Counted from the first letter of the stretch, positions 10,101 through 53,786 are shown. The stretch is DNA of 64,000 nucleotides from an uncultured Gammaproteobacteria bacterium (GCA_964447765.1 CAYUTO010000002.1:38955-102954); one strand, 5' to 3'. The notes: a model not told the origin generated them from the letters alone. Numbers and translations: made by a program.

Positions 10101-13100
10101 ATTGGTTCGTGTATCTATCAATCAATTAAAGCAGAAGCAACGAGTTGTCCTGCTGTCGCAAATGGATGTCGATCATATATTGGAAACACCGGTAATAATT
10201 TACAAATCATTACTACCTTTGGATTTGAGCCATCAGGAACCGGAGCAGCTGCACTTGATACAGCGAATGACGGATGGAGTGAGAATACGGTGGTCCAGGC
10301 AGAAGCACTACAGGTAGGGTTGCATTCTCTCAGGGTAAATGGACAAAGTACCAATTATACGTTTGAATCAGGGACATTACAGACAGGTGCGTGGTATGAG
10401 ATCCGTTTCTCTGCACGTGGTAATGCAGCATTTGGATTATCAATTGGATTTAGTCAGGGCGGGCAAAATATCGGGAATGCCTTTACTTACGACCCGTCGC
10501 TTAATCAGAATGCACCAGCTTCTATTGGTTCACAATGGCAGGAATATCGTGTAGGCCCCGTACAATTCACTGGTAATAGTAATGATCCTGTACAATTATA
10601 CTTTGAGGGATCTGGTGGTTCTCAGTTTTATTTCCTTGATACTATTGAATTTGCAAAAATTGGTGATTCAACAGATGATCATATTTTCCGTATAAAAAAT
10701 TCATGGAGAACTTCTGAAGGATACGAAGTTCCTCTTGCATGTGATTCGCAGCCTAATAATGGGCTTCCTGGTGAATATCTAGGATGTCGTGAGTATACAA
10801 ATAATGGAGTATCGTTCCCATTGACTGGCTTTGATCGACTCTGTCGTGATGAGGCAGTAGGTTGTCGTGCGCTTGTTGACACACAGAATACCGTTGAGGG
10901 AGTTCGTCCAGCAGAAAAACAGGCGTATGGAGTGGTGTGTCGAAAAGCTATTGGAGTAACATCGCCGACTCCATGTTCGGTTACACTGACTGAATCATCT
11001 ACCGTGTCTGCAACATATGGCTGTACCGTATCTCGTGGAGAACGCGAATGTCGGTTACCAAACCCTGTAGTAATTCCTGCACAAGCAGACGATGCGCCAG
11101 TGGTATTCGCGAATCTTCAGCAGGTCGCAGGCACTTGTATTTCGCTCAATGGATCATGTGCAATCAATAATAATGATAAATTAGTTATTGATGAATCTAC
11201 GGTTGTGGTGAAAGAAGATTCTGGTTTGATTTACCTTGCGGCACAAGATCAATTTGTATGTCAGGAAGACAACCTCGCATGTACCCGTGTAGGATTGGAA
11301 ACAAAAAATGTGAATGCAAATACGACGAGTGCATACAGTTATCAAGATGCATTTATCAAAAATGACCCACGTATTTATGCGGATATTTTGTGCTCGGGTG
11401 ACGAAGTAGGTTGTGCAGCATTCAAGAATGATAATTCTCTGGTGTATTTCAAGGATCCAGAAGTAAGTGGAGATACACAGTGTGTATATAAAGATAAGGT
11501 TACCCTGGGTGAAGGATTGGCAGCCCGAACGTACAGTGGATGGTTCAAAGATACAGGGAAATGCGCCGTGAGTAATCAGGAATGCCGGGCTGATGCGGAT
11601 TGTGGAGGGAATGATCGATGTATTGATATTGGTGTAGTACCATGTTACGAAAACTATCTGGATTCAGGTAATGAATACAGTATCTGGTCACAGGGAAGCC
11701 TGCAGTACGAAGGTAATGTGGGTATGTGCGATACTAATAACAATGGCTGTACCGAGCTTATTGATCGTGCGGCAATCACCTCTTCGACACCAAATGGAAA
11801 ATCCTACTATGCACTAATGAATGATCGACTCAAAGAAAATATTGCTCAGTGTGAAGGTAGAGTAAGTCAGAAAGAAGGATGTGTGTTATTCGATGTGACT
11901 GAGAATCCAGATAAAATCTTTGATACTTCAGCATCATATGATGCAAGTCGAGCAGCAACGCCGATTGATAGCCTGGTAAATCCAGTCCGCTCACAAAATA
12001 CAAATGATGCTAATTTTATTCTTAAGGTTGAGAGAGACCGTCAGTGTAGCGAGTGGCTTGCGTGTGGAAGCTCTATTACCGTGACTGATGAAAATGGTAA
12101 TGAACAAGTCTTATGTCAGCAATATATCGCATGTAGTAAATTCAATTCGACTGGAGAGTGTATTCAGCCAGTGAATACCTCGCAGGATAACTCGCAGATG
12201 ACTGAGGAAAAATATATTGCTCGAAGTACTGGCTGGACTGCACCAGAATATTCAGGGTACTCATTCTTTGGTCTGTATAATGCAAGTAATTTTGTTTACT
12301 TATTATTTGAAGGAAAAACAGAGGCATACATGGGGTATGAAATGAGTCATTCGTTTTTCCGTAACGAAGATGTGGGTGCAGGATGTCGTGCTACAGCTAA
12401 CATAGGAGGTGATACTAATTATGTAAAAGCTGATGGAGCCGTGTGTGGATTTGATGCGGGTGGACGATGTTATCGTCAGAGATGTATTTATCCAATCGAA
12501 GGAACGTTTGATTTTACTCCAGCTCCTGGAAATGATGTGGCTACGTCACAGGCAAATGTAGAAAAAATGTTGGTAGAGATGCAGCCAGGAATTTGTAAAT
12601 CATACCCAGAATCAACCAGTCCATTCTCTGTTGAGGTTGCAGTGAAAAATACTAATGAAGAAGTGGATATAAAAAGGAATGATGAATTTACCCGATATGA
12701 TTTTACTGAGAAAAAAGAATTATATGAGCGTGCAAATGTATGTCAGCCTGGTAGTGATTCCACTGATTGTTCGTGTGAATATTTGAAGGTTGAATACAAA
12801 AACGGAACCGTGGATTATTGGGCAACAAAAGATACTGAATTAGTAGCTCCTGGAATTTGTGTGGGGGGAGATAATGATGGAAACCCATGTGCTGCTGCAA
12901 GTGAATGTGGAGTTGGGGGAATGTGCAGTACGGTGAAGCAGAAAGGAACGTTTATCGGACAGCGTGGACTCTGTATCGAATATGATCTTAGTCGACCATT
13001 GGGAACTTCAAAATCTACTGCTCGATTGCACGAATCATTTGCCTGCCTCACCTGGCTTCCAATTCAGGTTTCAGCTTCATCAATTGATTTGAATAATCTC

Positions 13101-16100
13101 AATCCAGCCGCTGGGTACTATCCAGTGTCAAATTACGATTCTCCTCTTGGTGGGGGGCATGCATATTGTACGGAGAGCACGAATCGTGGTGCGGGATATT
13201 ATTTTACTGGTCTTGATGTTGAGGCAAACATAGGACCTTTCGGTACTCCTGGTTTGACTGGCGGTGAGAACATACGATTATGGGGTACGAATGTAGATGA
13301 CTTTACGTATTATGAGGATGTACCAGGTGTTCCAGGTGTCTTTAGTTCGAGTGAAACTATTAATTATGACACAATTGGTACGGTGGGAGGAAAATATAGA
13401 AGTCTGATGGAGTCTGCATCAGAAACAGCGGCACATAGATTGAAGATATATCGCGCAATACAGACGTGGGCGTGGAAACATATTGGAAATTCTGCTCGTA
13501 TTCTTCGGGTGGATGTGGCTGGAGGAGATACACCAAGGTATTATTATCCGAATAATGGTAAAATAAGTGATATAGATAGTAATATTGATATGCTTGGGTT
13601 TGCCCCAGATATTAATAACTCTGATATTACTCATGAAGATACGGGTACGGTAATGCACCCTCCAAGGTTGTTCAGTGCTGCTGGGATTGGGTTGGGCGAA
13701 TACTTAATGAACCCGGGAGATGGTGATTTTGGAATCATCGGAAGTGCTGCATTTTCTCCCGAGGTAAACAATAGTGCGGTACTCGATAAATATGTTGCGA
13801 TCGATAGAGAAGTTGAGAAAAAATTGAATGAAGAAGATATTCAGAGCATGCATTTTGTCCCTATAGCATATCCAGGCGGAGCAGAGGGTGATAATCCTGC
13901 AATGTTGACCAAAGAGTTGGCTATCGATTTCGCTAGTCTACGTTCTCTGCCCCGTGGACAGAATCGGGCATATCAAACTACTGTGCCCGCATACCGTGAT
14001 AATGATAATAATGAAGATCAGATTCGGTATAATACCTACGATGCAGATGAACAAATGGTACAGGTGGCATATCTGCTTGAACGAGGTACCAATGGGGTGA
14101 CTGGAGATGGGCTATTGTCGTACGGCGAGTATAAAGATGCGTCAGGTAGTTATTGGAGTGACTATCTTGGTAAGACAGATAAACATGAACGAACAAAAAT
14201 CCATCGTCGGTATGTATCATTGGTATTTAGTAAAAATGAGACAACATTCACAAGCTTGAATGTGAGTCCAACGCAGATTCCTTCAGGCATGTCTGACCCA
14301 TTTGCTACTAATGGTTGTGAAACTCCATCAAACAATATCTCAAAGAATTGGTTTGCAATTGGTATGGATTTCAATAAAGATGGTGAGTTCCTGGGGTACA
14401 TTTCTCGATGGTGTATGAATACACGAAATGAGGGAGACGAAGCAAATGGTATACGTTTTGCGACGATTGCACATATGCAAGATAGATGTCTCGAGTACAA
14501 TGCTGTTGTTGATAATCAGGTTGCTCTCAGTGGAGATAATAATAAAGCATGGACTGACCGTGTGTGGATTAATAGTACCTATCAGTCCGGATCAAGTTTA
14601 CTTGCAATTCTTAAAGCAGGGGCAACTGGGTTGGCACCATATGGATCACTCCCACAAAGTGTGGCGAGCGCTGAAATTCTCCGAGCAAATCCTACAAAAC
14701 CTGTTCCATCCTACGGTTTCCCGGATTATAATTTTGGTGTGCAATATCAGTGTAGTGGTGGTGATGGTTTTTCGAATGACCCGCGTTCTCTATTTGGTTC
14801 AAAAAATTGTGCACGTCCTATTGGAGAGTCAGAAAGTATTACCAACATCACTTTCGAGATTAGTAGGGATCCAAAAGAAGGGCGAGACAAACTTCGTGAG
14901 TTGTTCATGAAATATTATGAAATGAAGAATTTTGAAGCCATTGGTATTGCTCCAAAAGATATTAATACTTTTAACCCTGAAGTTATTGCAGATTTAGGCG
15001 GTGATGTAGGTGCAATTGGTAATGCAACAAGACCTCCGCAGATCTTCTCGATCAATCCATATACCTGTAGTCAAAGAGGAGGAAATTGTACTGCAGCAGA
15101 AGTAGATGCGTTTACTATAAATTTCAGAAACTTCACCTCTACTGATTATAATAATGATGGTAGTCCTGATGAAGATTCAAATCTGCAGGATGGAATCGAT
15201 CCGATTGTTGCCGAGGGAACGTATTATGCAATTGCAAACTTCTTTGCCTATGCCGATGACAATCGAATGCCTATCAAGAGTGTGAAAGTAGAGTGGGGTG
15301 ATAATTCATTCCAAAATGATAGTCCAGATGGATTGTATAAGAATCGAAAACCATACTGTGGTGCAACTGATAATTTTACGTATAACTATAATGCTAATAC
15401 AAATAGTGGACTAGGGCGCTGTGTAGGTACGCAGATTACCTGTAATAGCAGTGAAGATTGTCGGTATGCAGGAGTGAATGGCGCTGCAGTAGCGTGCGAG
15501 AGTCCAGGCATTCCAACTCCATCTCGTGTAGGTGTGTGTAGGTATACCCCAACAGGCCCTGCAACCGTTCCTGGTGTAGCATGCCAATCGGTCGATGAAT
15601 GTCAGCCGTATGATCCTGCCAACTATGTGACAGAGTGTGTACTACCAAATCAGGGTAGTGATCATAGTGGGGGGCAGTGTCTTTCGACTAGACGTCAAAA
15701 TACAGTATTTACCAATAATGTAGACTGTCAGCAGAGCAGTGTGTGTCCGCTTATAAGTGGTGCTGTTGCTGCATGTGATCTTCCCCCGCTTGCTACTCCT
15801 CCTGCAGGACAACGACATTTCGGAGACGCACCACGCGCATGTAGGAGTCAATACTTCGAATACGCACATACTTATCAGTGTACGAGTGCTGATACAAATG
15901 CGAAGGTCGGAGAGTTACAAAATTCTACAGACGATGGAGATCAAGAGGCGTACAGAAGATTGATCGGTCGGGCAGGAGTGACTCCTGAAACAGATATTTG
16001 TGTATTCATACCAAAGGTCCAGGTAATCGATAACTGGGGATGGTGTAATGCTTCACAAATAGCTGCATTAGAAGAAAATGGGGACTTTACACTTTGTCCA

Positions 16101-16214
16101 AATGATAATACAGGCAAAGGGTGTTACGAAGGTAATAATCAATTATGTAGCAGGTCGGTTAACGCTTATACTCAATATAAAGGTAAGATTATTCTACTAC
16201 CAATAAGTGAATAA
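7155..16214 (+). CDS. Giant (3019 aa) N-terminally membrane-anchored, cysteine-rich surface protein with an internal CBM/lectin-like beta-sandwich domain
   Basis: Single uninterrupted ORF. TM near the N-terminus (IAIIAVVVVVNVLGF). More than 12 copies of a G-C-x-x-[YFL] motif (GCRAYSL, GCEVYAP, GCDEFTN, GCRSYIG, GCREYTN, GCRALVD, GCAAFKN, GCTELID...). The region ...FEPSGTG...AWYEIRFSARGNAAFG...QWQEYRVG...FYFLDTIEF resembles CBM4_9 / galactose-binding-like domains. Confidence 0.7.
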   Translation: MFFLSKRTKKHSVIAIIAVVVVVNVLGFNLLRPTPVRAFVDVNQGLRNVTDNIGDSLLAAGLGALVNGASYFMRKIAYDTAKYIASGGKGQGALAFQDGFGSYLGNVAADSAFDAIDELGKPFGLNICQPPDIRLQIGLQVSISNIFAQDGPQPSCTYNQFKEKWDNARDSLVGDQNLLENFNVSLKTSQGSLGTALSILGKVDSIVAKSELGAQLERLEGGGFKSITGLISGEIKTPAQITREEATGQLTATAQTKSSAEQIAGLYGADALSIFPMALSVFANTLASTLLQNVLEKGLLPTKGDPSSVADFYASTVNRNRQIAETAFSYLIAGIPQRPLTAYDVVTEYSTCGSNPGLNNCVMDSGLAQALDRARLGTPLTIGEAMSSQNNLLHDDWLLIADHLEGIDPSVSKTNLTNTNLEYCHSSAYCISNVEKLRKARILPLGFEIAVMKSPPDNPWKLGDVVRGFNTCDPSGKPSDAYPYCKLIDPNWILKAPEARCEARVSGPELLTESTPTRREECVDFSTCLETDENGQCKGFGYCTKEENIWNMPGQACAPQFNTCKTYVSASDGKIASYLSRTLDVESCSADSIGCRAYSLDKDGDAWVTSAEADPATAFSGRTQAIHFTNIAQCPSSSEGCSLFMDPTISDASSDEARVFLKKAPDYLQCYDSDLTTSDVVEWPQTQAEIVKLDTQKAAACSAFAGACTGEEVGCEVYAPKNGGASVTGIIGGNSCPTQCVGYETFKQEATTFESEKFPLHFIASNARTCTSLQVGCDEFTNIGVASEGGEALEYYTALKRCERPSGDNSGVFYSWEGSESQGYQLRRNILLPITSSDRDYISSHGLNYKSGDSLESVFPVGSPAYVEDLKSAMQSNYDQCNQESYNLLLNNVLNDSRVADNDCRALYNSNGQIFYRVFRNTVTVSNSCTPLRKTNSELMVDENITAGNGGQTLCEAKGGVWGAGECKRCAAGGTYEVNTEGIGSCIYQSIKAEATSCPAVANGCRSYIGNTGNNLQIITTFGFEPSGTGAAALDTANDGWSENTVVQAEALQVGLHSLRVNGQSTNYTFESGTLQTGAWYEIRFSARGNAAFGLSIGFSQGGQNIGNAFTYDPSLNQNAPASIGSQWQEYRVGPVQFTGNSNDPVQLYFEGSGGSQFYFLDTIEFAKIGDSTDDHIFRIKNSWRTSEGYEVPLACDSQPNNGLPGEYLGCREYTNNGVSFPLTGFDRLCRDEAVGCRALVDTQNTVEGVRPAEKQAYGVVCRKAIGVTSPTPCSVTLTESSTVSATYGCTVSRGERECRLPNPVVIPAQADDAPVVFANLQQVAGTCISLNGSCAINNNDKLVIDESTVVVKEDSGLIYLAAQDQFVCQEDNLACTRVGLETKNVNANTTSAYSYQDAFIKNDPRIYADILCSGDEVGCAAFKNDNSLVYFKDPEVSGDTQCVYKDKVTLGEGLAARTYSGWFKDTGKCAVSNQECRADADCGGNDRCIDIGVVPCYENYLDSGNEYSIWSQGSLQYEGNVGMCDTNNNGCTELIDRAAITSSTPNGKSYYALMNDRLKENIAQCEGRVSQKEGCVLFDVTENPDKIFDTSASYDASRAATPIDSLVNPVRSQNTNDANFILKVERDRQCSEWLACGSSITVTDENGNEQVLCQQYIACSKFNSTGECIQPVNTSQDNSQMTEEKYIARSTGWTAPEYSGYSFFGLYNASNFVYLLFEGKTEAYMGYEMSHSFFRNEDVGAGCRATANIGGDTNYVKADGAVCGFDAGGRCYRQRCIYPIEGTFDFTPAPGNDVATSQANVEKMLVEMQPGICKSYPESTSPFSVEVAVKNTNEEVDIKRNDEFTRYDFTEKKELYERANVCQPGSDSTDCSCEYLKVEYKNGTVDYWATKDTELVAPGICVGGDNDGNPCAAASECGVGGMCSTVKQKGTFIGQRGLCIEYDLSRPLGTSKSTARLHESFACLTWLPIQVSASSIDLNNLNPAAGYYPVSNYDSPLGGGHAYCTESTNRGAGYYFTGLDVEANIGPFGTPGLTGGENIRLWGTNVDDFTYYEDVPGVPGVFSSSETINYDTIGTVGGKYRSLMESASETAAHRLKIYRAIQTWAWKHIGNSARILRVDVAGGDTPRYYYPNNGKISDIDSNIDMLGFAPDINNSDITHEDTGTVMHPPRLFSAAGIGLGEYLMNPGDGDFGIIGSAAFSPEVNNSAVLDKYVAIDREVEKKLNEEDIQSMHFVPIAYPGGAEGDNPAMLTKELAIDFASLRSLPRGQNRAYQTTVPAYRDNDNNEDQIRYNTYDADEQMVQVAYLLERGTNGVTGDGLLSYGEYKDASGSYWSDYLGKTDKHERTKIHRRYVSLVFSKNETTFTSLNVSPTQIPSGMSDPFATNGCETPSNNISKNWFAIGMDFNKDGEFLGYISRWCMNTRNEGDEANGIRFATIAHMQDRCLEYNAVVDNQVALSGDNNKAWTDRVWINSTYQSGSSLLAILKAGATGLAPYGSLPQSVASAEILRANPTKPVPSYGFPDYNFGVQYQCSGGDGFSNDPRSLFGSKNCARPIGESESITNITFEISRDPKEGRDKLRELFMKYYEMKNFEAIGIAPKDINTFNPEVIADLGGDVGAIGNATRPPQIFSINPYTCSQRGGNCTAAEVDAFTINFRNFTSTDYNNDGSPDEDSNLQDGIDPIVAEGTYYAIANFFAYADDNRMPIKSVKVEWGDNSFQNDSPDGLYKNRKPYCGATDNFTYNYNANTNSGLGRCVGTQITCNSSEDCRYAGVNGAAVACESPGIPTPSRVGVCRYTPTGPATVPGVACQSVDECQPYDPANYVTECVLPNQGSDHSGGQCLSTRRQNTVFTNNVDCQQSSVCPLISGAVAACDLPPLATPPAGQRHFGDAPRACRSQYFEYAHTYQCTSADTNAKVGELQNSTDDGDQEAYRRLIGRAGVTPETDICVFIPKVQVIDNWGWCNASQIAALEENGDFTLCPNDNTGKGCYEGNNQLCSRSVNAYTQYKGKIILLPISE

Positions 16215-16370: not shown

Positions 16371-16889
16371 TCACCGGTAGAACGTGGTGAGCAGCGAAGA
16401 GCCTGGCAGGTCAGCTCGGACATCCTTTCGAATGAGGGCCTCTCCTTCGATGAAGAGATAGCTTGTATATTCGTGGATGCCTGAAGCCCATTGACTCGAC
16501 AGCGGTAGCGTCTTGCCGAAGAAGCGTTGTGTGCCGCAGCCGTCGCAGGCGAAGATGAGTTCGCACTGGTCGCCAGCAGCAGAGACCTGGACCGTGATCT
16601 CGAGTCGATCACCGTCGATCAGGTTGTTGTCGCTCTCGCACCACCAGATTCCCCGTAGGTCGAAGAGATCTTCGCAGAGGTCCTCGGCAGTGAGTGGTGG
16701 TGTGAACGTGTCATTTGTGGCGGTATCTGGGACCGCCGTGTAGGTGTCGGGCTGGTGGGGATCATCTCCCTTACCAGTGTCCGACGTATCGGTGGTAGTG
16801 ATTGGACCAGGTTCGACACCTGGATCCGAAGAGTCGCAAGCCGCCATCGCGAGGGCGGCAGCGATGACGGCAATCATCCTGCAGAGCAT
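16371..16889 (-). CDS. Lipoprotein (GC-rich island A); signal peptide with lipobox ALAMAAC
   Basis: MLCRMIAVIAAALAMAACDSS..., T/D/P-rich linker, 4 Cys. GAGGAG SD sits 8 nt upstream of the ATG. Local GC is far above the flanks. Confidence 0.6.
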   Translation of the reverse strand: MLCRMIAVIAAALAMAACDSSDPGVEPGPITTTDTSDTGKGDDPHQPDTYTAVPDTATNDTFTPPLTAEDLCEDLFDLRGIWWCESDNNLIDGDRLEITVQVSAAGDQCELIFACDGCGTQRFFGKTLPLSSQWASGIHEYTSYLFIEGEALIRKDVRADLPGSSLLTTFYR

Positions 16890-23685: not shown

Positions 23686-24237
23686 ATGAAAGACATCATC
23701 AGTATTCTCGAATCAATTCTATTTGTCGCCTCAAAGCCACTCACCGTGAAAGCGCTTGCGCGAGCACTCGAAGTGAATGAAGGGGATATTGAAGGTGGTT
23801 TAGTACCTATAAGTGAAAAATATACGGGGGTATGTGGGATACACTATCTCCGAGTAGATGATACCGTACAATTGGTCACGAATCCTGCAAATACGGTAGA
23901 AGTTGAAAAATTTGTAGCACGGGACATCTTAGGTGAACTTACCAAAGCACAATTGGAAACACTGACAGTTATTGGCTATCGAGGTCCGATTACCAGGCCT
24001 GAGATTGAAGAAATCAGAGGAGTGAATTGTGCGGTCATACTTCGTACATTGCTCATTCGTGACTTGGTGGAAGAACATGAGTCAAGTGACAGTGTTCTTC
24101 CAACATATACCGTGTCTCTCACTGCATTACGACAATTGGGTGTAGGGAAAGTGGAAGAATTGCCAGACTACGCAGAAATTCATAATCATGCCTATTTTTC
24201 TCGACCGGGAGAAAGTTCACCTGCAGAAACAAATTAA
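23686..24237 (+). CDS. scpB: Segregation and condensation protein B
   Basis: ILESILFVASKPLTVKALARALEV is a ScpB winged-helix signature. Confidence 0.85.
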   Translation: MKDIISILESILFVASKPLTVKALARALEVNEGDIEGGLVPISEKYTGVCGIHYLRVDDTVQLVTNPANTVEVEKFVARDILGELTKAQLETLTVIGYRGPITRPEIEEIRGVNCAVILRTLLIRDLVEEHESSDSVLPTYTVSLTALRQLGVGKVEELPDYAEIHNHAYFSRPGESSPAETN

Positions 24238-24256
24238 TTGTCCAAAGATTTTGTAT

Positions 24257-25309
24257 ATGGAAGAACCAAAAATAATTGATACGATGAACAGAATTTCCCC
24301 AAACGCATGGAGGAATAGTATCTGTGTAGTAGTCTTGAGCGCGATTGCGACTGGTTGGGGACTGTATGTATTTCATGGTCGTCTCTACAAACCGCTTGAG
24401 CTCACTGAGTCTGAGCAGACTATGCTCGTGGTGAATAAACCAATCACCGAAGTAAAGGGAATAAAAGAATATCGTCCCTATATCATTGGGGGAGATGTCG
24501 CTCATACGGTGATCATGCCAAAAAAACGGGACATGTTTATCCCGTTTGATATGAGGGGAATTTCTGCTGAGACCGTGTTGATAAAAGATATGGAAACCGG
24601 GGAAGTGTTATTTGGTAATAATGAATACACTTCTCGTTCGCTTGCGAGTATTACTAAATTGATGAGTGCACTAGTTCTCGAAGAACGTGTCTCTGATTGG
24701 AATGCGGTTGTTGCAAGTCCTGCTGATACGATCTTTGATTCCCACATATATGCCTATGACTCAACGTCCCTTGAAGAATGGTTTAGGGTTGCATTGATTG
24801 GATCATCTAATCGCGCAATGCTTACCTTGGTTGATGGTAGTGGGTATACACGCGAGGAGTTTGTTAATCGCATGAATGAAAAAGCTTTTGAATTGGGGAT
24901 GACTGATACTCATTTTACAGAGCCTACCGGAATTGATTCCGGGAATGTTTCTACTGCGTCAGATGTCGCTCTTCTTCTTCGTGAAGCATTGCGTCACGAG
25001 CATATTGTAGCCTCACTCGGAATACACTCAATTGATCATCGGTCTTCGGTAACAGAAAAAACAACCACTATTCGGAATACAAATCGATTACTAACTCAAT
25101 GGGTTGTGAATGAATTTGCTGAATCAGTGATAGGAAAAACAGGCTATATCGTCGAGTCTAAATATAATTTTGCAGGTAAATTTTCAAAAAGTTCTGAACG
25201 TCAGTTGTTGGTCGTAGTGCTTGGGTCAGAGAATGAAACAACGCGTTTTACGGATGCATCAACTCTTGCTGGTTGGGCATTTACGAACTATGAATGGGTT
25301 ATTAACTAA
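24257..25309 (+). CDS. D-alanyl-D-alanine carboxypeptidase (serine-type, peptidase S11 / PBP5-like), membrane-anchored
   Basis: SxxK motif (SITK) in RSLASITKLMSALVVLEE. SGN-like and KTG (GKTGY) motifs present. N-terminal TM. Confidence 0.75.
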   Translation: MEEPKIIDTMNRISPNAWRNSICVVVLSAIATGWGLYVFHGRLYKPLELTESEQTMLVVNKPITEVKGIKEYRPYIIGGDVAHTVIMPKKRDMFIPFDMRGISAETVLIKDMETGEVLFGNNEYTSRSLASITKLMSALVLEERVSDWNAVVASPADTIFDSHIYAYDSTSLEEWFRVALIGSSNRAMLTLVDGSGYTREEFVNRMNEKAFELGMTDTHFTEPTGIDSGNVSTASDVALLLREALRHEHIVASLGIHSIDHRSSVTEKTTTIRNTNRLLTQWVVNEFAESVIGKTGYIVESKYNFAGKFSKSSERQLLVVVLGSENETTRFTDASTLAGWAFTNYEWVIN

Positions 25310-45778: not shown

Positions 45779-45815
45779 TGGTGTGTAGATACGTCAAAAG
45801 AGTGGAAAATCGTCC

Positions 45816-45854
45816 CCAGTTTGCATTGACAAACTGGGTTTTTTTGTGTATACT
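45816..45854 (+). promoter_or_regulatory. recG rho-independent terminator whose loop contains the -35 box of a consensus promoter TTGACA-17-TATACT driving the island-D gene
   Basis: ccagtttg-cattga-caaactgg then gttttttt. TTGACA at ~45826 and TATACT at ~45849. Confidence 0.65.
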
Positions 45855-45919
45855 CCGCCAGTCTGTTCCACAGGGGCAGGCACCGTCACGCACGAAAGTG
45901 CATTATCAGGAGTCTCACT

Positions 45920-46405
45920 TTGAAAGAATCGGTTCTCAATCGGATCAACAAGATGTCCTATGAGGAGGGTGCCAACCTCCTCACGAACCTCCGCCTGAAC
46001 GCGATCCCTCCGTACCGTCTCCACACCCACCCCGTCGAGTTCACGATCCACACCTTCGGCGTCGACTGCGAGGCCAGGGTCAAGTCGGACACGATGGATA
46101 CGCGTCGTGCCATGAGTGATCTCGGCATGCCGCGGGTCCAGGAGATCGCCAACACGATCTACTTGCACCCGACGCTCGGGGAGGATGCTCTGAACGCGAT
46201 GCTCGACGGCAAACGTGTCGTGATCAACGTCCAGCGTCACCCGAAGACGGAGACGAAGCCCGCGATGCAGGCGGTTCCGATGGCGCCGGTCGAGGTCATC
46301 GCCTCGGTGCTCGACGACGTGCCGGAGGACAAGAGCAAGAAGAAGGTCGAGAACAAGTCTCGGCGCAAGCAGCAGCCCGCGGTCTCCGCGGAATTGCTCC
46401 ACTAG
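45920..46405 (+). CDS. Hypothetical protein (GC-rich island D, ~65% GC). TTG start with AGGAG SD.
   Basis: ORF track 161 aa. AGGAG sits 7 nt upstream of TTG. Opposite-strand ORF 45794..46492 is Arg-rich, typical of an antisense artefact in GC-rich DNA. Confidence 0.55.
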   Translation: MKESVLNRINKMSYEEGANLLTNLRLNAIPPYRLHTHPVEFTIHTFGVDCEARVKSDTMDTRRAMSDLGMPRVQEIANTIYLHPTLGEDALNAMLDGKRVVINVQRHPKTETKPAMQAVPMAPVEVIASVLDDVPEDKSKKKVENKSRRKQQPAVSAELLH

Positions 46406-46558
46406 GTCAAATGATCTAGTAAGAGAAGCAGGCGGTCGCCCATGGCGACTGTCCTGCGTCTCGAATACAAAATCCACACTCGAATCACGCAATAAGTCTC
46501 ATCTATATGGGAACTATCGCGGGAGGGCGAGTGTGGATTTTTGTTTTGCAGTGTATTA

Positions 46559-48599: not shown

Positions 48600-50708
48600 T
48601 CATTGCTTACAGGTACAAAGAGGGGTAGGAACTCCTCTATTAGAATCTCCCACAGCTGTTGTGGTGCAAGTATTGGTTCTGCATCCTGATGAAGTATTGT
48701 AATCAAAATGCCACACCTCTCCAGTAAATCGTTTCCATCCAACGACTGAGTAGAACAGTTCGGCAAGTATTTTGTTACCTATTTTCCATTTACCATCTCC
48801 AGTGCTGGTGCACACTTTACTACTACCTGATCCTGTACATGTTTTTGAATTTTCTTGAAGTATGACAGCAGTATCAAAATCAGGGTTTGTAATTGGTTCA
48901 TTATTTTTGTCAAAAAGAATGGTGTCAACTGCGCCCCCGCCCGCATAGTTATGGGCATTAGCGCCAGGAAAAGATAGTTTGGTTCCTAGATCTCCTGTAT
49001 TATTAGGGAATTTAGTGCAGACACGTGTTATAGCGTCTTCCAAAGATCTCCATGAACTATTAATTTGTATGGTAAAAGGTCCAGCTGGATGAGCTTGTGC
49101 TTTTAATCCGACAGCCTTTAAAGGTTCTACAAGCATTATAGGGATGCGTTTGCTCGTTCGAATTCCAGGAGCCCTAAGACCAACTTGTGTTTCGGATATT
49201 GGCATAGATCCTATCACACTTTGTTCTGGCCATGTCTCAGGTGGGTGTTGAGCACACCATTGGCGACAGCCCTCTATGCTGTCACACACATAACCTCTGG
49301 GACCAGTATATGGTCTTGGTAACGTGCTACCACCTGGGGTAGTTGGGGGAGGAGTGGTACCTGGGGTAGTTTGAGCTGATTGATCAGATTGATACGATAC
49401 ATGTGTACCATTATCTGAGTTAACTGTTTCACTAGCTTCAATCTCAGGTTCCTCAAGAAGTTTTTGGGGTATTACTAATATCTTCAAATTCTTCAAATTC
49501 ACCAAATCAGGATTCACGGTATAGAGAATCGTGTATGATCCTGCAGTAATTACAATTGCAATTACTGAGGACACAATTCGATGTTTCGCGCTACTGATAG
49601 TCTCGCTATTTCCAGCTGAAGTAATAATCTGCACTCCAGAGATAATGAGTACCATGACTGCAATAAGTGAGATCAGTCCTACACTATATTTATAAATCGC
49701 AGAAATAAATTCTCCGAGAAATGGAATATTGAGCCAGCTTGCACCAAATTCATCAGTAGTGATGTGAGTCTCTTTGGTAATATTGGTAAAAAATACTCCA
49801 GGTATCCCAATTTTTGTTTCAGGTGTGACGAGCTCTGGGGCCTCCATCGAAATATCAAAGCCGAGGAAAGTGGTCTGAACTAGATTATCTGGAGAGCTAG
49901 GAGAAGTGGGTCCTGCCCATGTACGCATCGTCTGAAGGGAAGTCGGCATCCAGTTGTTTTTTGCAGTATTCTGACACACATGAAGATTGGCTAAATCACC
50001 TGTTCCGTCTGCCTTAACCCAGGTGCCATCTCCATATTGCTCGGTGCAAACTTCCTGTATGGTGTTCGCAGGAGCTACATTGACAATAGTACCTAAATTA
50101 CAGATTTTAAGTTCTTTATCCTGAGCAAACCATGGATCATTTTCAACAGTGCTTGCGATAGTAGTGGAGTCACACACATGGTATCCTCCTCGTTGAGATA
50201 AACATGCATCATGGTCATCGCATGCATAGCCCATAAGAATTTTTTTTTCAACAGGATACTTAACATCATTTGTCGAATTTTTTGGAAGACTACTAAGATA
50301 GTCCGCTTTTTTACAAAAATTCCATTCAGCTCGGGACGAATCAGGATCTTGATCTGAGTCCATACACTTCCAGCCAGAAGCAGTGCCCCCATATCCGCCG
50401 TATAAGGTGTTTTCGCAATGGTCACTTTTTTGCTTATCCTGGTCATCGCATACACAAAAACTATTCTGGCATAGGCCTGTAGTACACTGATCATCATCAC
50501 TACAAGCTTGTCCAATTTTTTTCCCAATACAGATTGAGGATTGGCACAATCCACTATCACAATCACTGTTGACGCTACATGCACCACCTGCGTCTGTTGC
50601 TGTATGTACAGAGATTGCCTGTGTGATTCCAAGTATAATAAAAAACAAACTTGCTAGGATACGTAATGTAATTGCGTGTATTTTCATAACCCAAGTATAC
50701 GCTCCCAA
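48600..50708 (-). CDS. Secreted/membrane Cys-rich protein: signal peptide, EGF/Dickkopf-like CxxC modules, two central TM helices, Pro/Thr linker, C-terminal peptidase M15 (VanY / L-Ala-D-Glu endopeptidase-like) domain
   Basis: CSVNSDCDSGLCQSSICIGKK...CSDDDQCTTGLCQNSFCVCDD. TMs ISAIYKYSVGLISLIAVMVLIISGV and IVSSVIAIVITAGSYTILY. C-terminal SFPGANAHNYAGGGAVD and EVWHFDY resemble the M15 SxHxxGxAxD and EWWHF motifs. Confidence 0.55.
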   Translation of the reverse strand: MGAYTWVMKIHAITLRILASLFFIILGITQAISVHTATDAGGACSVNSDCDSGLCQSSICIGKKIGQACSDDDQCTTGLCQNSFCVCDDQDKQKSDHCENTLYGGYGGTASGWKCMDSDQDPDSSRAEWNFCKKADYLSSLPKNSTNDVKYPVEKKILMGYACDDHDACLSQRGGYHVCDSTTIASTVENDPWFAQDKELKICNLGTIVNVAPANTIQEVCTEQYGDGTWVKADGTGDLANLHVCQNTAKNNWMPTSLQTMRTWAGPTSPSSPDNLVQTTFLGFDISMEAPELVTPETKIGIPGVFFTNITKETHITTDEFGASWLNIPFLGEFISAIYKYSVGLISLIAVMVLIISGVQIITSAGNSETISSAKHRIVSSVIAIVITAGSYTILYTVNPDLVNLKNLKILVIPQKLLEEPEIEASETVNSDNGTHVSYQSDQSAQTTPGTTPPPTTPGGSTLPRPYTGPRGYVCDSIEGCRQWCAQHPPETWPEQSVIGSMPISETQVGLRAPGIRTSKRIPIMLVEPLKAVGLKAQAHPAGPFTIQINSSWRSLEDAITRVCTKFPNNTGDLGTKLSFPGANAHNYAGGGAVDTILFDKNNEPITNPDFDTAVILQENSKTCTGSGSSKVCTSTGDGKWKIGNKILAELFYSVVGWKRFTGEVWHFDYNTSSGCRTNTCTTTAVGDSNRGVPTPLCTCKQ

Positions 50709-51349
50709 TCACTCAATAACTTTGGAGTCTCTATTTGTACATTATTTATAAATAATGTGGGAACAGACTGAAGATTGAGTGTGTTCGCAATATTTTTATT
50801 AAGTTCAATAATCCGATCTGGACGATCTGATTCAAGACATGTATTTAATTTTTCGATATCAAGTTTGATTTCTTGGCTAATTTTGGTAAGCGTGCCTTCT
50901 GAGAGATTGTCGCTGTTGGAGAATGCATAGGCTGCAAACTGATCGAATTGTTTTTGTTCATGAGCGCATACCCCATATCGAAGTGCGGTCAGTGAAGGGT
51001 GGGGAAAATTATTCACCGGGAGACCTTTCCAAACCATCTTTACTTTATCCGGGTGTTTTTGTTGTACCTGGAGAAAGAGATCGTGTTGTGTTCTGCATGC
51101 ACTACAGGAAAAGTCTTCAAATGCGATTACGGTTATGGGTGATTTTTTGCTTCCAATGATGGGGTCTGTCGGGAGGGTAGGAATTTTGAATTCAGAAGCT
51201 ACATTTTCTTCTACTGCTGCAATTTTTGGATTGAGTGGTTGGTAGCGAACAATTTGGATAAAAAGCGCAAGAGCCCCTAGGAGAATAGCTGGTAAAAAGA
51301 CGGCGTAGATTTTTTTGTGTGTGAGTTCGTGGGACATAGTTTTTTGCAA
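50684..51349 (-). CDS. DsbA-like thiol:disulfide oxidoreductase, membrane-anchored
   Basis: Thioredoxin-fold CxxC (FEDFSCSACRTQHDLF). N-terminal TM. Confidence 0.7.
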   Translation of the reverse strand: MQKTMSHELTHKKIYAVFLPAILLGALALFIQIVRYQPLNPKIAAVEENVASEFKIPTLPTDPIIGSKKSPITVIAFEDFSCSACRTQHDLFLQVQQKHPDKVKMVWKGLPVNNFPHPSLTALRYGVCAHEQKQFDQFAAYAFSNSDNLSEGTLTKISQEIKLDIEKLNTCLESDRPDRIIELNKNIANTLNLQSVPTLFINNVQIETPKLLSDWERILGL

Positions 51350-51354
51350 CTCCC

Positions 51355-52605
51355 TTATTTAAGTGGAATGCTAAACAATCCACTTTGATTTTTGTCAGTG
51401 AAGTAGAGTGTACTTCCATCTCCACTGACAAACATAGAGTCTACTACATGCGAGTCGTCAGTCTGGAGTGCTGTTCTAATTCCTGTGACGGTATCAATTC
51501 GATAAAAAGTATCTGCCGTAAAATTGGCAACTTCGGGGGCAAATCCTGCGCCACTTTCAAGGGTCGTTGGTACCCCGCAGTAGACGGTGCGTTCATCTGC
51601 CATCGTACATTTGGATGCCCAAGTGTTTACGCCCAATGGTTTTCGGTTTGCGCCAGCATTTTCTGGGCTTGCGTCCACAATCCATAATTCAGGCTTATAA
51701 TCAGTTCGTGAGCTGTGCACACTGTGTAGTAGTTTATTGCCTTCAGGAGACCATTGAGTTTGCAGTCCGCGTCCTTCGACTTCGATTGATCTAAAATTTT
51801 CATTGTTTTGTCCGACGAGGAGTAATTCTTGTCGCTGTCCACCAATTTCGTCTCCAGTCAAAGAAAGTGCTACTACTTGTCGGTTGGGTGACCAATCAAC
51901 GATTACTTTTGATGCATTATTACCAAGTGCCTCGACAAGGGATACATTATTTCCTGTAGGGTCACTCGTGATAAGCCAACGATTGTCGGGGGATAACCCC
52001 ATGCTTTTTGCAGTGATTTGTGAGCCTTCTTCGGAGAAAGAAAATGATTCCCAGTGTTTGGGGAGTGTTACCTGAGTATTCGAATCAAAATCATAATAAA
52101 TATTTGATCCATCAGGGTATTCAATAATTGTTTCATTGGTCTCGGGTGACCATGTAGCCTGAGTGACATTATAAAACACCGTATCACTCAGTACTCGTAC
52201 ACCCCCATTTCGATCAAGGGTATAAAATTTTCCGTCATTCTCATTGTAAAATCGTGCATTTCCGCTCGGTCCCGGACTAGGACTCCCTATGCTCACGTCT
52301 ACTACACGGGTAATTAATGGTTGGGAATTTGGTCGGTTGATCGTATTCGGCTGGATAATCCCTCCGGTTGTTTGTCCGCCACCCGTCTGACCGCTGCCAG
52401 TCGGTAAGGTACCTCCTCCTGAGGTGATAGGGGGAATATCCCGTTCTCCCGTCTCGGGGAATAGACTGCCGTCAGTTTGTGTTCCGGTCCCAGGAGGAAC
52501 AGTGCTTACAGGAGCTTGTCGAAAAAATACCCAATAAATGGCAAATCCCAAGAGTACACAAATGCCGAGAAAACCGACGGTAAGTAATATTTGCTTTTTT
52601 TCCAT
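51355..52605 (-). CDS. TolB-like beta-propeller (PD40/WD40-like) protein, N-terminally membrane-anchored
   Basis: TM, then G/T/P-rich linker, then repeated WSPETN / WSPNRQ / WSPEGN blades. Confidence 0.6.
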   Translation of the reverse strand: MEKKQILLTVGFLGICVLLGFAIYWVFFRQAPVSTVPPGTGTQTDGSLFPETGERDIPPITSGGGTLPTGSGQTGGGQTTGGIIQPNTINRPNSQPLITRVVDVSIGSPSPGPSGNARFYNENDGKFYTLDRNGGVRVLSDTVFYNVTQATWSPETNETIIEYPDGSNIYYDFDSNTQVTLPKHWESFSFSEEGSQITAKSMGLSPDNRWLITSDPTGNNVSLVEALGNNASKVIVDWSPNRQVVALSLTGDEIGGQRQELLLVGQNNENFRSIEVEGRGLQTQWSPEGNKLLHSVHSSRTDYKPELWIVDASPENAGANRKPLGVNTWASKCTMADERTVYCGVPTTLESGAGFAPEVANFTADTFYRIDTVTGIRTALQTDDSHVVDSMFVSGDGSTLYFTDKNQSGLFSIPLK

Positions 52606-52649: not shown

Positions 52650-53786
52650 TTAAGTTGCTTGCGGGACATCAAACTTCGGGGTAGGTGCACGAGGTCCACT
52701 TCTTTTTTGTCGCTGGATAGATTGTATCACATTTACAGCTTTTTCTCGATCTTTTTTGGCTTTATCGATTTTTTCATCGATTGTTTTGATTTGCTTTTCG
52801 AGTAGATCTATCAATTCGCTTATTCCGTATTGTATGAATTTCAATAACCAATCTAAACCTTTGAGTATTAACCCGATAATAGCGAGGATGATAGTGAAAT
52901 ATAATATTGCTATCACAATGGCAAGGAGTCCTCGGGCAATCAAAATAAATAGTTTTGAAACTTGTAGAGTGCGCAGTGCGACTTGTAGAGGTAATTTTTT
53001 TAACCGTAAATTTTTGATTTTTTGATCCAGTTTTTGCTTGATACGCATGACACGATTCATCTTTTGTGACGCCTGTTGATCCTGCTTCATGGACATTTCC
53101 TGTCCTTGAGTCTGTTGCAAAACTCTCATTCCCAAATTTCGTTTTTGTTGCACTTCCTGTTTTTTCTTCCCACGCTCTTGTTCAAGTTGTTGCTCTCGGA
53201 CTTGTTCTTCTTGGAGTGCTTGATCTAGGAATGCACTCTGATCTTCTTCGCTTTGATCTTCATTTTCTTCGTCGCCCTCTTTGGTACCTTCTTTGGAAGA
53301 AGGATTTGATTCGGCATCAGCGAGGGGAAATGGATTTTCTTCTGTACCCTCCCCTTGGTCAGGGGTATCGGGGACGGTATCAGGAGTAGAGGGGTCGGTC
53401 TGTTGAGTTTGGTTTTGAGTAGATGAGTTTCGTTGTGTTCGGCGTGCGGAAGGTGATAATTGTGTCTGTGCAGAAGATGGTACATCAAATTTGAGTTTTA
53501 ACTTTACACCAGCTGAACCATCCGATGTTGTTTCAAGACTAGAACTATCATTACCCCCTGATTCGAGGCTTGCTTGGATATGATCAATTTCAAGACCAGT
53601 AGCCTCATCTTCGTTATTAATTGCTAGTTTTGCATCATTTCGTGCGCTATTCTGACTGCGATATATCTGAGATGCTTGGTTCTGCTCCGTAGGTGTGGCG
53701 GACGCAGGTTTACCGGAACCGATGGCAGCAGCAAGAGCGGCTCCGCGAGCAAAACGTCCGACGAAGTTGCCTTTTTTTGATGCCAT
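52650..53786 (-). CDS. Q/E/S-rich intrinsically disordered protein with coiled-coil segments and a C-proximal TM helix
   Basis: QEEQVREQQLEQERGKKKQEVQQKRN... TM LFILIARGLLAIVIAILYFTIILAIIGLIL. Start overlaps the stop of the upstream Clp gene. Confidence 0.5.
   Translation of the reverse strand: MASKKGNFVGRFARGAALAAAIGSGKPASATPTEQNQASQIYRSQNSARNDAKLAINNEDEATGLEIDHIQASLESGGNDSSSLETTSDGSAGVKLKLKFDVPSSAQTQLSPSARRTQRNSSTQNQTQQTDPSTPDTVPDTPDQGEGTEENPFPLADAESNPSSKEGTKEGDEENEDQSEEDQSAFLDQALQEEQVREQQLEQERGKKKQEVQQKRNLGMRVLQQTQGQEMSMKQDQQASQKMNRVMRIKQKLDQKIKNLRLKKLPLQVALRTLQVSKLFILIARGLLAIVIAILYFTIILAIIGLILKGLDWLLKFIQYGISELIDLLEKQIKTIDEKIDKAKKDREKAVNVIQSIQRQKRSGPRAPTPKFDVPQAT

Follow-up and report, generated by a model that had tools for sequence, protein, structure and literature searches.

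The minus strand of a 64,000-nucleotide stretch of contig CAYUTO010000002.1 (GCA_964447765.1, positions 38955-102954; hereafter the window, meaning the whole stretch analyzed) carries two adjoining open reading frames (ORFs) at 48600..51349. The upstream one encodes a DsbA-type oxidoreductase, and the downstream one, the target gene of this study, encodes a cysteine-rich protein with a central membrane hairpin and a peptidase-like C-terminal domain. The coordinates of both genes and of their features, all verified by translation, are collected in Table 1, with residue numbers given in the 702-aa frame that opens at a TTG codon. The true start is likely the ATG at 50687 (MKIHAIT...), because it yields the 695-aa database protein P0001 (100% identity) and the homologue P0003 starts at the equivalent position. 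This ATG and the TGA stop codon of dsbA overlap as ATGA, which suggests translational coupling of the two genes. The organism is a candidate-phyla-radiation (CPR; Patescibacteria-type) bacterium, and the named relatives of the target's N-domain belong to Candidatus Magasanikbacteria. Two contigs with clear orthologues are recorded as 'uncultured Gammaproteobacteria bacterium', and the taxonomy of these metagenome-assembled genomes is probably mislabelled.

Three hydrophobic segments divide the target: a signal peptide at aa 6-37, an N-terminal element also seen as a hydrophobic segment in most family members, and two membrane-spanning segments at aa 334-367 and 377-398. Its 28 Cys residues are distributed between the N-terminal domain (18) and the C-terminal domain (10), with none in the membrane region, and they make up 4.0% of the protein against 1.19% in the remaining ORFs of the window (binomial P = 4e-8). 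The preliminary description of this locus had reported two transmembrane (TM) helices followed by a Pro/Thr linker, and both are found where it placed them, the linker occupying aa 411-471. If the target adopts the topology of VirB2 proteins, in which the leader is removed and the helices are joined by a short basic loop, both large domains would lie outside the cell, in agreement with the Cys content and the DsbA neighbor. Judging from hydrophobicity, charge and Cys distribution, it is highly likely that both Cys-rich domains are extracytoplasmic; an entirely cytoplasmic protein, named in that description as the outcome that would overturn its proposal, is not what the predicted topology gives.

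Table 1. Positions in the window of the target gene, its parts and the neighboring cassette genes.
Feature	Position	Strand	Residues	Remarks
Target gene, from ATG	48600..50687	-	695 aa + stop	TTG at 50708 adds 7 aa (702-aa frame, 48600..50708)
Sec-type signal peptide MKIHAITLRILASLFFIILGITQA	50616..50687	-		From hydrophobic segment aa 6-37 and translation; cut after TQA inferred, not computed
Exported N-domain	49728..50615	-		18 Cys; lineage-specific; ends in pre-hairpin segment K-I-G-IPGVFF...ITTD
Cys module 1 CSVNSDCDSGLCQSSIC	50529..50579	-	aa 44-60	Copy number varies
Cys module 2 CSDDDQCTTGLCQNSFCVC	50448..50504	-	aa 69-87	Invariant in family; EB-module match E 4e-4, sub-threshold
Two-helix membrane hairpin, VirB2/TrbC-like (PF18895)	49479..49727	-	aa 328-410 (83 aa)	TM1 ~334-367, loop SETISSAKH, TM2 377-398; conserved tail NPDLVNLKNLKI
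Linker, acidic, then Pro/Thr-rich	49296..49478	-	aa 411-471	Contains SAQTTPGTTPPPTTPGGSTLPRPYTGPR; head-swap junction at linker start
M15B-like (VanY/LdcB-type, LAS fold) zinc peptidase domain (predicted)	48603..49295	-	aa 472-702 (231 aa)	10 Cys; from profile, AlphaFold2 and Foldseek
Arg of S-x-W-R (= SGYR of M15B)	49047..49049	-	R554	Aligned to SGYRS of YodJ
HNYAGGGAVD (within AHNYAGGGAVD), first two zinc ligands (predicted)	48924..48953	-	H586...D595	Aligned to SEHQTGLAMD of YodJ
E-V-W-H (within GEVWHFDY), catalytic Glu and third zinc ligand (predicted)	48708..48719	-	E664-H667	Aligned to EPWH of YodJ
Membrane-anchored DsbA/BdbD-type oxidoreductase	50684..51349	-		Likely ATG 51337
CSAC active site of DsbA	51095..51106	-	aa 82-85
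cis-Pro SVPT of DsbA	50756..50767	-	aa 195-198
Putative beta-propeller, membrane-anchored	51355..52605	-	416 aa	TM aa 3-33; best-conserved cassette partner, more so than the hydrolase
Acidic/coiled-coil membrane protein	52650..53786	-	378 aa	First cassette gene after clpB; hydrophobic aa 273-318

The peptidase head, the hairpin and the cysteine-rich domain

To place the C-terminal domain, we searched all of 1.84 billion cluster representatives with a profile. At E <= 1e-3 this gave 260 relatives, 100 of which remained at E <= 1e-10, and 41 of their C-domains were aligned, with the window sequence first (alignment A2). Smaller inputs had been uninformative: a protein homologue search with the alignment A1 returned nothing, and a four-sequence C-domain profile found no M15 match among Protein Data Bank (PDB) sequences. 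The A2 profile, searched against the same database, matched YodJ/LdcB (4ox3, 3.8e-12), VanY-like proteins (4mph/4jid, ~1e-7) and VanX (1r44, 1.1e-7), as well as VanXY enzymes, pneumococcal LdcB/DacB and the L-Ala-D-Glu peptidases Ply500 and LysB4. In this alignment the family motifs SGYRpL, PGgsnHgsGkAvD and kEiWHFe fall on SGYRSY, PGESEHQTGLAMD and YEPWHLRY of YodJ, respectively. When relatives were scanned individually, 89 of 102 matched the Pfam VanY family (PF02557) at E <= 1e-3 and 65 of 102 matched Peptidase_M15; P0016, which has the same head type as the window protein, passes the VanY threshold (36.4 bits against 25).

Seven residues (R554, H586, D595, R660, E664, W666 and H667) are invariant in all 41 sequences of A2. 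By what is known of LdcB and VanX, they presumably include the His/Asp/His zinc ligands, the catalytic Glu and, in R554, the transition-state Arg, so that at the level of sequence the head keeps an intact R / H...D / E-x-x-H catalytic set. The AlphaFold2 (AF2) model of the window C-domain, built on A2, reached a mean predicted local distance difference test (pLDDT) score of 88 and a predicted TM-score (pTM) of 0.86, with 10-residue blocks over the catalytic motifs averaging ~87-97. The predicted model has the Hedgehog/DD-peptidase (LAS) fold. Its top Foldseek match in the PDB was VanX (probability 1.00, TM-score 0.44-0.49), followed by LysECD7, Hedgehog, VanXYc, T5 endolysin, MepA and LdcB, all of which are LAS-fold proteins matched with modest scores. 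A search of viral folds (BFVD) gave nothing significant, and there is therefore no evidence of a close phage-endolysin relative.

Taken together, the C-domain is, with high confidence and by transitive homology, a member of the M15 (VanY/LdcB/VanX) zinc peptidase superfamily. The assignment to M15 that had been proposed from the motifs thus holds at superfamily level under the 41-sequence profile, with every catalytic residue kept, and the alignment check suggested at the time bears it out, H586, D595 and H667 all being present and the profile aligning to YodJ and matching VanY-like proteins and Ply500. The clade of the window is the most divergent of the family, with H-x8-D in place of the H-x6-D found elsewhere (a 2-residue insertion), Trp at the position of the Tyr that precedes the Arg, Ala where Gln is otherwise conserved, and an insertion of ~30 residues that brings two extra Cys. 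Seven Cys are conserved in the head family (C475, C481, C485, C564, C676, C681 and C698), and we infer that the head is a disulfide-stapled variant of M15B.

The hairpin that anchors this head has the layout of a type IV secretion system (T4SS) pilin, with a leader, two hydrophobic helices and a short loop. On the window protein, the matches are below family cut-offs: Pfam T4SS_pilin (PF18895) reaches 22.4 bits where 26.6 are required (E 1.3e-4), and the NCBIfam Mbov_0395 pilin-like conjugal transfer family gives E 7e-6. Among relatives, 70 of 102 match PF18895 at E <= 1e-3 (P0016 with 40.9 bits) and two of 102 match TrbC, so that the pilin/TrbC-like character first noticed in the sequence is supported by the layout and by the profile matches of relatives. 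The target is not a small hairpin-only protein as pilins are, since it has 695 aa, with ~300 before the hairpin and ~290 after it. The arrangement of N-terminal hydrophobic segment, variable N-domain, two TM helices and head recurs in nearly all inspected family members. Across homologues, amino acid identity is 77-99% in the hairpin and drops to ~40% in the N-domain. At DNA level, third-position identity in the hairpin is 0.45-0.67, and 27-38 identical residues are encoded by different codons; these synonymous changes point to purifying selection, not recent transfer. Such constraint would not be expected of a passive anchor, and it argues for a conserved partner or self-assembly. A hairpin hidden Markov model searched against all six-frame ORFs of the window found the target gene alone, in single copy. 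Outside the window, six Magasanikbacteria proteins of ~480-520 aa (P0017-P0022), one of them named 'pilin', have the same hairpin (<=63% identity over it), short N-terminal parts and C-terminal domains of ~300 aa that match nothing in Pfam. In this lineage, then, a wide variety of cargo domains seems to be attached to the hairpin.

In the N-domain, both tandem Cys modules quoted in the preliminary description are present, and alignment of 12 homologues shows 14 invariant Cys columns in the domain; module 1 is missing from 7 of the 12 homologues, and P0007 and P0010 have an extra module N-terminal to it. All relatives of the N-domain belong to Candidatus Magasanikbacteria wherever the entry carries a name, and a protein homologue search with the N-domain alone found one partial Magasanikbacteria protein only. 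The AF2 model of this domain is poor (pLDDT 63), and Foldseek with this low-confidence model gave no fold match, only small disulfide peptides at E 3-4. By sequence, the EB module scores 17.6-20.8 bits against a cut-off of 24.3, and LEAP2 gives E 0.67. The label 'EGF/Dickkopf-like' must accordingly be dropped: neither EGF nor Dickkopf is matched by sequence or by fold, and what remains are sub-threshold EB-module matches and chance-level small disulfide peptides.

Exchange of the head and the conserved gene cassette

To compare the parts separately, we divided 12 full-length homologues on either side of the hairpin and measured the identity of each piece to its counterpart in the window protein. 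The two closest N-domains are joined to other enzymes. P0002, with 78% N-domain identity, carries a head of a second, VanX-like M15 subfamily, which is 22% identical in a forced global alignment and shows a weak remote match to the window-type profile (~1e-9, in a search of only 170 sequences). P0003, with 69% N-domain identity, carries an Amidase_2 head, 24% identical in a forced global alignment and with no profile match. Heads of the window type are found on P0004 and P0005, whose N-domains are each 40% identical and whose heads are 59% and 45% identical, respectively. Two more homologues have an unclassified head with a weak SLT signal in Pfam, and P0015, a hairpin protein of more remote kinship, ends in an M64 peptidase. 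The swap junction sits right after the conserved tail NPDLVNLKNLKILV, and homologues part immediately past NLKILV. As read from these sequences, the enzymatic head is exchanged at one chromosomal site among Magasanikbacteria orthologues. The architecture belongs to a large family and is not a one-off, since at least 260 protein clusters have the hairpin-VanY design, nearly all of them within a conserved cassette; neither the size of the family nor the exchange of heads had been noticed in the preliminary description.

This site lies in ordinary core genome. The window encodes topA, a Mur ligase, dprA, pth, der, an LCP protein, clpB, glmM and htpX, together with rseP, aspS, relA/spoT, parB, an S11 DD-carboxypeptidase and pheS. 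The S11 enzyme (Peptidase_S11, PBP5-type) is encoded at 24188..25309 (+); DD-carboxypeptidases of this family normally make the tetrapeptide substrate of LdcB-type M15B enzymes. Around the target, the order htpX-clpB-X-propeller-[dsbA]-target-radA is conserved even where C-domains share only 25-35% identity. On the minus strand of the window, the gaps between clpB, the 378-aa gene, the 416-aa gene, dsbA and the target are 1, 44, 5 and -4 nt, and radA follows after 167 nt. The full cassette with DsbA surrounds P0004 (same head type), P0012 (Amidase_2 head), P0006 (second M15 type), P0016 (short N-domain) and the family member P0060. Among the other family members, P0027 has the cassette without DsbA, P0024 has a 420-aa protein directly upstream and no DsbA, P0031 is followed by radA and recG with its upstream side cut off, and P0043 stands in a different context. 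Irrespective of the type of head, the gene directly downstream is radA, both in the window and at seven related loci, and no immunity gene is found there.

The best-conserved partner in the cassette is the 416-aa putative propeller protein, whose orthologues (BLASTP, 34-83% identity) were present in all six other loci that hold it, directly upstream of the hairpin gene or of dsbA plus the hairpin gene. PD40 was matched in two of seven propeller orthologues (best E 6e-7), and profile searches of this partner against the PDB were empty. The 378-aa gene evolves fast, with 22-46% identity to genes at the same position in three loci and lengths of 164-420 aa elsewhere.

The DsbA reported upstream of the target is indeed a member of the Thioredoxin_4/DsbA family (88 bits against a cut-off of 23.2) with the CSAC active site and a TM helix at aa 12-36. 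Its nearest solved relatives are Wolbachia DsbA1 (4e-9), BdbD (1e-7) and further DsbA-like proteins, and in the alignment with DsbA1 the CSAC falls on CYHC and VP on VP. Orthologues of this DsbA (23-73% identity, BLASTP) occur in five other loci, and a DsbA gene adjoins the target-family gene in six of nine informative loci. To call it a 'dedicated oxidase', as had been done, is too strong: three related loci have no adjacent DsbA, and a 3019-aa exported protein with 108 Cys would need the same oxidase. This 3019-aa ORF, at 7155..16214 (+), has a TM helix at aa 8-34 and a Cys content of 3.6%, and nothing in Pfam matches it at E <= 1e-4. It resembles the giant, Cys-rich surface proteins that have been reported from CPR bacteria and is likely a further DsbA client. 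Beside it, a 172-aa ORF at 16371..16889 (-) has 4.1% Cys and no Pfam match. No DsbB, BdbC or VKOR partner was seen among the scanned ORFs of the window.

Searches for mobile or secretion-related surroundings were negative. We found no T4SS components among the scanned ORFs of the window or in the 12-14 kb around eight related loci. A scan of genome contigs for the target gene confirmed only two loci. A mobile-element or defense-system origin was rejected, since tblastn of the hairpin plus head against plasmid and phage collections gave no match and PADLOC found no defense-system match. A promoter and terminator scan stayed at background level, and Rfam and tRNA scans of the window returned five tRNAs only, none of them relevant. 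Elsewhere in the window, two long, overlapping antisense ORFs of 232 aa (-) and 161 aa (+) lie at 45794..46492, between recG and a DUF559 gene; they match neither Pfam nor Rfam, so that either is at most a putative gene, and sit at the edge of a somewhat GC-richer stretch at 46-48 kb (GC 0.455).

Proposed function and rival explanations

On balance, the whole is best explained if the target is an exported, membrane-tethered peptidoglycan peptidase of four parts. The Sec signal would export the N-terminus, and the hairpin would form two membrane spans joined by a short basic loop on the cytoplasmic side. The coupled, membrane-anchored DsbA would probably form ~14 disulfides. The head, on its flexible linker of ~60 residues, would then cut a D-amino-acid-containing bond in peptidoglycan stem peptides, either terminal D-Ala or L-Ala-D-Glu being possible. 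The hairpin would dock the enzyme to a conserved membrane assembly, perhaps the propeller protein or the patescibacterial T4SS/pilus machinery, and the producer's own wall would be edited or opened locally and under control, as by envelope-machine hydrolases or LdcB. Being the most constrained part of the protein, the hairpin most likely does more than anchor it passively, and a specific docking role is fairly probable.

That the producer's own wall is the target is slightly favored, for several reasons. The heads are tethered beneath this wall without any immunity gene; the gene is a syntenic core gene, single-copy in the window; a VanY-type head is stably retained across the wider family (89 of 102); and peptidoglycan is made by this genome, which also encodes the S11 carboxypeptidase, the usual supplier of substrate to an LdcB-type enzyme. 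The window is also free of T4SS, plasmid or phage signatures. For local opening of the wall, as with VirB1-type enzymes, the exact bond would matter little, and exchange of heads could therefore be tolerated. Most Patescibacteria with VirB2-like pilins have no recognizable VirB1 wall hydrolase (PMC12102498), and a hydrolase fused to a pilin module would fill this gap.

Several points weigh against this reading. M15 membership rests on transitive homology and on a predicted fold with modest TM-scores: the window protein matches neither VanY nor Peptidase_M15 in Pfam even at E <= 10, and neither it nor its C-terminal 246 aa gave an M15 match in Pfam, NCBIfam or PDB sequences. The divergence of the window clade explains these missing direct matches, but the 2-residue insertion and the absent Gln after the Arg motif also mean that activity or specificity may differ. 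No T4SS genes lie near the target in the window, so that its context supports neither docking nor a role in place of VirB1. The exchange of heads among close relatives and the fast-evolving Cys-rich N-domain form a pattern expected of partner- or host-facing proteins. Finally, in Southlakia epibionticum (Saccharibacteria), for which transposon insertion sequencing (Tn-seq) data exist, the stretch from the Clp ATPase gene to radA encodes just one hypothetical protein, which is zincin-like, and the listing of that proteome contains no VanY domain; this organism is without the cassette, and its Tn-seq data therefore do not apply.

The exchange of heads and the fast-evolving N-domain lend some weight to the reading advanced in the preliminary description, a host-directed weapon, which we regard as possible but doubtful. 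Worked out further, the protein would sit on the surface of a symbiont or on a T4SS-type pilus, the N-domain would bind a host, and the head would digest host peptidoglycan at the point of contact for attachment or feeding, with heads swapped to suit host wall chemistry. It would account for unrelated heads on the closest N-domain relatives (78% and 69%) and heads of the same type on 40%-identical N-domains, and for an N-domain that evolves fast and varies in the copy number of Cys module 1. It also has precedents, since Saccharibacteria cannot grow as epibionts without VirB2-like pilins (PMC12857230; PMC10633639), secreted wall hydrolases have been proposed as host-attack factors in other CPR bacteria (PMC8080830), and VanY-like domains serve as toxin heads in polymorphic toxin systems (PMC12419801). 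The same evidence that points to the producer's own wall stands in its way, however: no head type has an immunity gene beside it, the enzyme is tethered below the wall of its producer, the gene is a syntenic core gene outside any accessory or T4SS region, the VanY-type head is stable in the wider family, and plasmid and phage collections hold no match.

A bolder form of this idea, which we consider improbable, makes the hairpin a delivery module that places exchangeable heads (M15B, a second M15 type, amidase or transglycosylase-like) and a host-binding Cys domain into the patescibacterial T4SS-type pilus or its base. If true, it would mean an 'enzyme-armed' pilus that bores through cell walls where symbiont and host meet, with the head type tracking host wall chemistry, and the protein class would be the 'missing VirB1' of Patescibacteria.

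Less probable still is a propilin-style carrier, in which proteolysis at the two flanks of the hairpin would free the N-domain and the head as soluble extracellular proteins and leave only the hairpin in the membrane or pilus. TrbC and VirB2 propilins are processed at both their N- and C-termini, a trimming that offers a precedent, and the target family has conserved motifs before the hairpin (K-I-x-IPG-V-x-F...ITTD) and after it (NP-D/E-LVNL-K/R-x-L), the second followed by the swap junction; P0017-P0022, hairpin proteins of the same phylum whose ~490 aa include C-terminal domains of other kinds, would fit as well. On the other hand, neither a protease nor a cyclase is encoded in the cassette, the motifs may be conserved just because the pilin fold requires them, and flexible Pro/Thr linkers are usually found in enzymes that stay tethered, not in released ones.

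It is very unlikely that the head of the window clade has lost its activity and only binds stem peptides, holding a membrane complex to the wall, for although its 2-residue insertion in H...D, its Trp for Tyr and Ala for Gln, its 30-residue Cys-containing insertion and the lack of a direct Pfam match would suit such a role, the window protein, like 41 of 41 relatives, keeps all five catalytic or metal residues, and AF2 is confident at the motifs.

Relation to known systems and significance

Within the four-part peptidase that we favor, the enzyme has close counterparts. LdcB/YodJ/DacB, VanY (MEROPS M15B, from monoderms), CwlK and Ply500 share the S-x-Y/W-R, H...D and E-x-W-H motifs and the predicted LAS fold, and the LdcB/VanY group is likewise extracytoplasmic, membrane-tethered and found together with an S11 DD-carboxypeptidase. 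Unlike these enzymes, which have an N-terminal helix or lipid as anchor, the window protein is held by a VirB2-like, double-pass hairpin in mid-protein; in addition, the window-type domain has 7-10 conserved Cys and an extra N-terminal C-x5-C-x3-C, and a Cys-rich domain of ~300 aa precedes it. The neighboring DsbA, an ordinary member of its family, shares with BdbD/DsbA of monoderms the Thioredoxin_4 fold, a CxxC (CSAC), the cis-Pro loop and a membrane anchor, but it is coupled in translation to a single Cys-rich client gene.

The anchor resembles the PF18895 VirB2-like pilins of Patescibacteria and TrbC/VirB2 (PF04956) in its signal peptide, two helices, short basic loop and phylum (PMC12102498); the sequence match of the window protein itself lies below the family cut-offs. 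Canonical VirB2-like pilins have ~100-150 aa and often form arrays near virB4, whereas the target has large domains at both ends of its hairpin and lies between clpB and radA. VirB1-type hydrolases of Gram-positive conjugation systems (PrgK, TraG of pIP501, CwlT) are also modular and membrane-anchored, are thought to open the wall of the producer locally and have interchangeable lytic domains (PMC12102498); they differ from the target in combining SLT/lysozyme with CHAP/NlpC-P60 domains on a single N-terminal anchor within T4SS clusters, in place of an M15B head on a pilin-like anchor with no T4SS cluster. Modular type IV pilins such as PilB and PilC of Streptococcus sanguinis similarly graft a functional module onto a pilin module (PMC8179133), but they belong to an unrelated superfamily (type 4 filament as opposed to T4SS VirB2-like), and their grafts are adhesive, not enzymatic.

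Polymorphic toxins share with the target a constant N-terminal part, alternative C-terminal enzymatic heads and a sharp junction between them (PMC12419801). In contrast to these toxins, the target has no adjacent immunity gene or orphan cassettes and occupies a fixed core-genome site, and the identifiable heads of its family are wall hydrolases except for the M64 head of P0015. The closest case in print concerns a different operon of Patescibacteria, where a single membrane-anchored N-terminal region is common to two peptidases that are not related to each other (Burroughs and Aravind 2025, PMC12419801). The combination of PF18895 with VanY is already visible in precomputed database annotations, and in the literature outside subscription journals we found no published description of enzyme-fused VirB2-like hairpins, of the cassette or of head swapping. 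The enzyme itself is ordinary; what is unexpected is its pilin-hairpin carrier, the strong constraint on that carrier, the conserved cassette and the exchange of heads in place.

VirB2-like pilins are abundant in Patescibacteria and, in the single system studied genetically, indispensable for epibiotic growth (PMC12102498, PMC12857230, PMC10633639), and our findings bear on the open question of what role these proteins play. They indicate that the pilin hairpin also serves as a strongly constrained carrier of predicted wall-cutting enzymes in a chromosomal cassette. The putative disulfide-stapled M15B scaffold and the DsbA-client pair can be expressed and assayed without culturing the organism. 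The protein class comprises at least 260 clusters at 50% identity and offers a hypothesis that would link pilin-like proteins to wall processing in an uncultured phylum.

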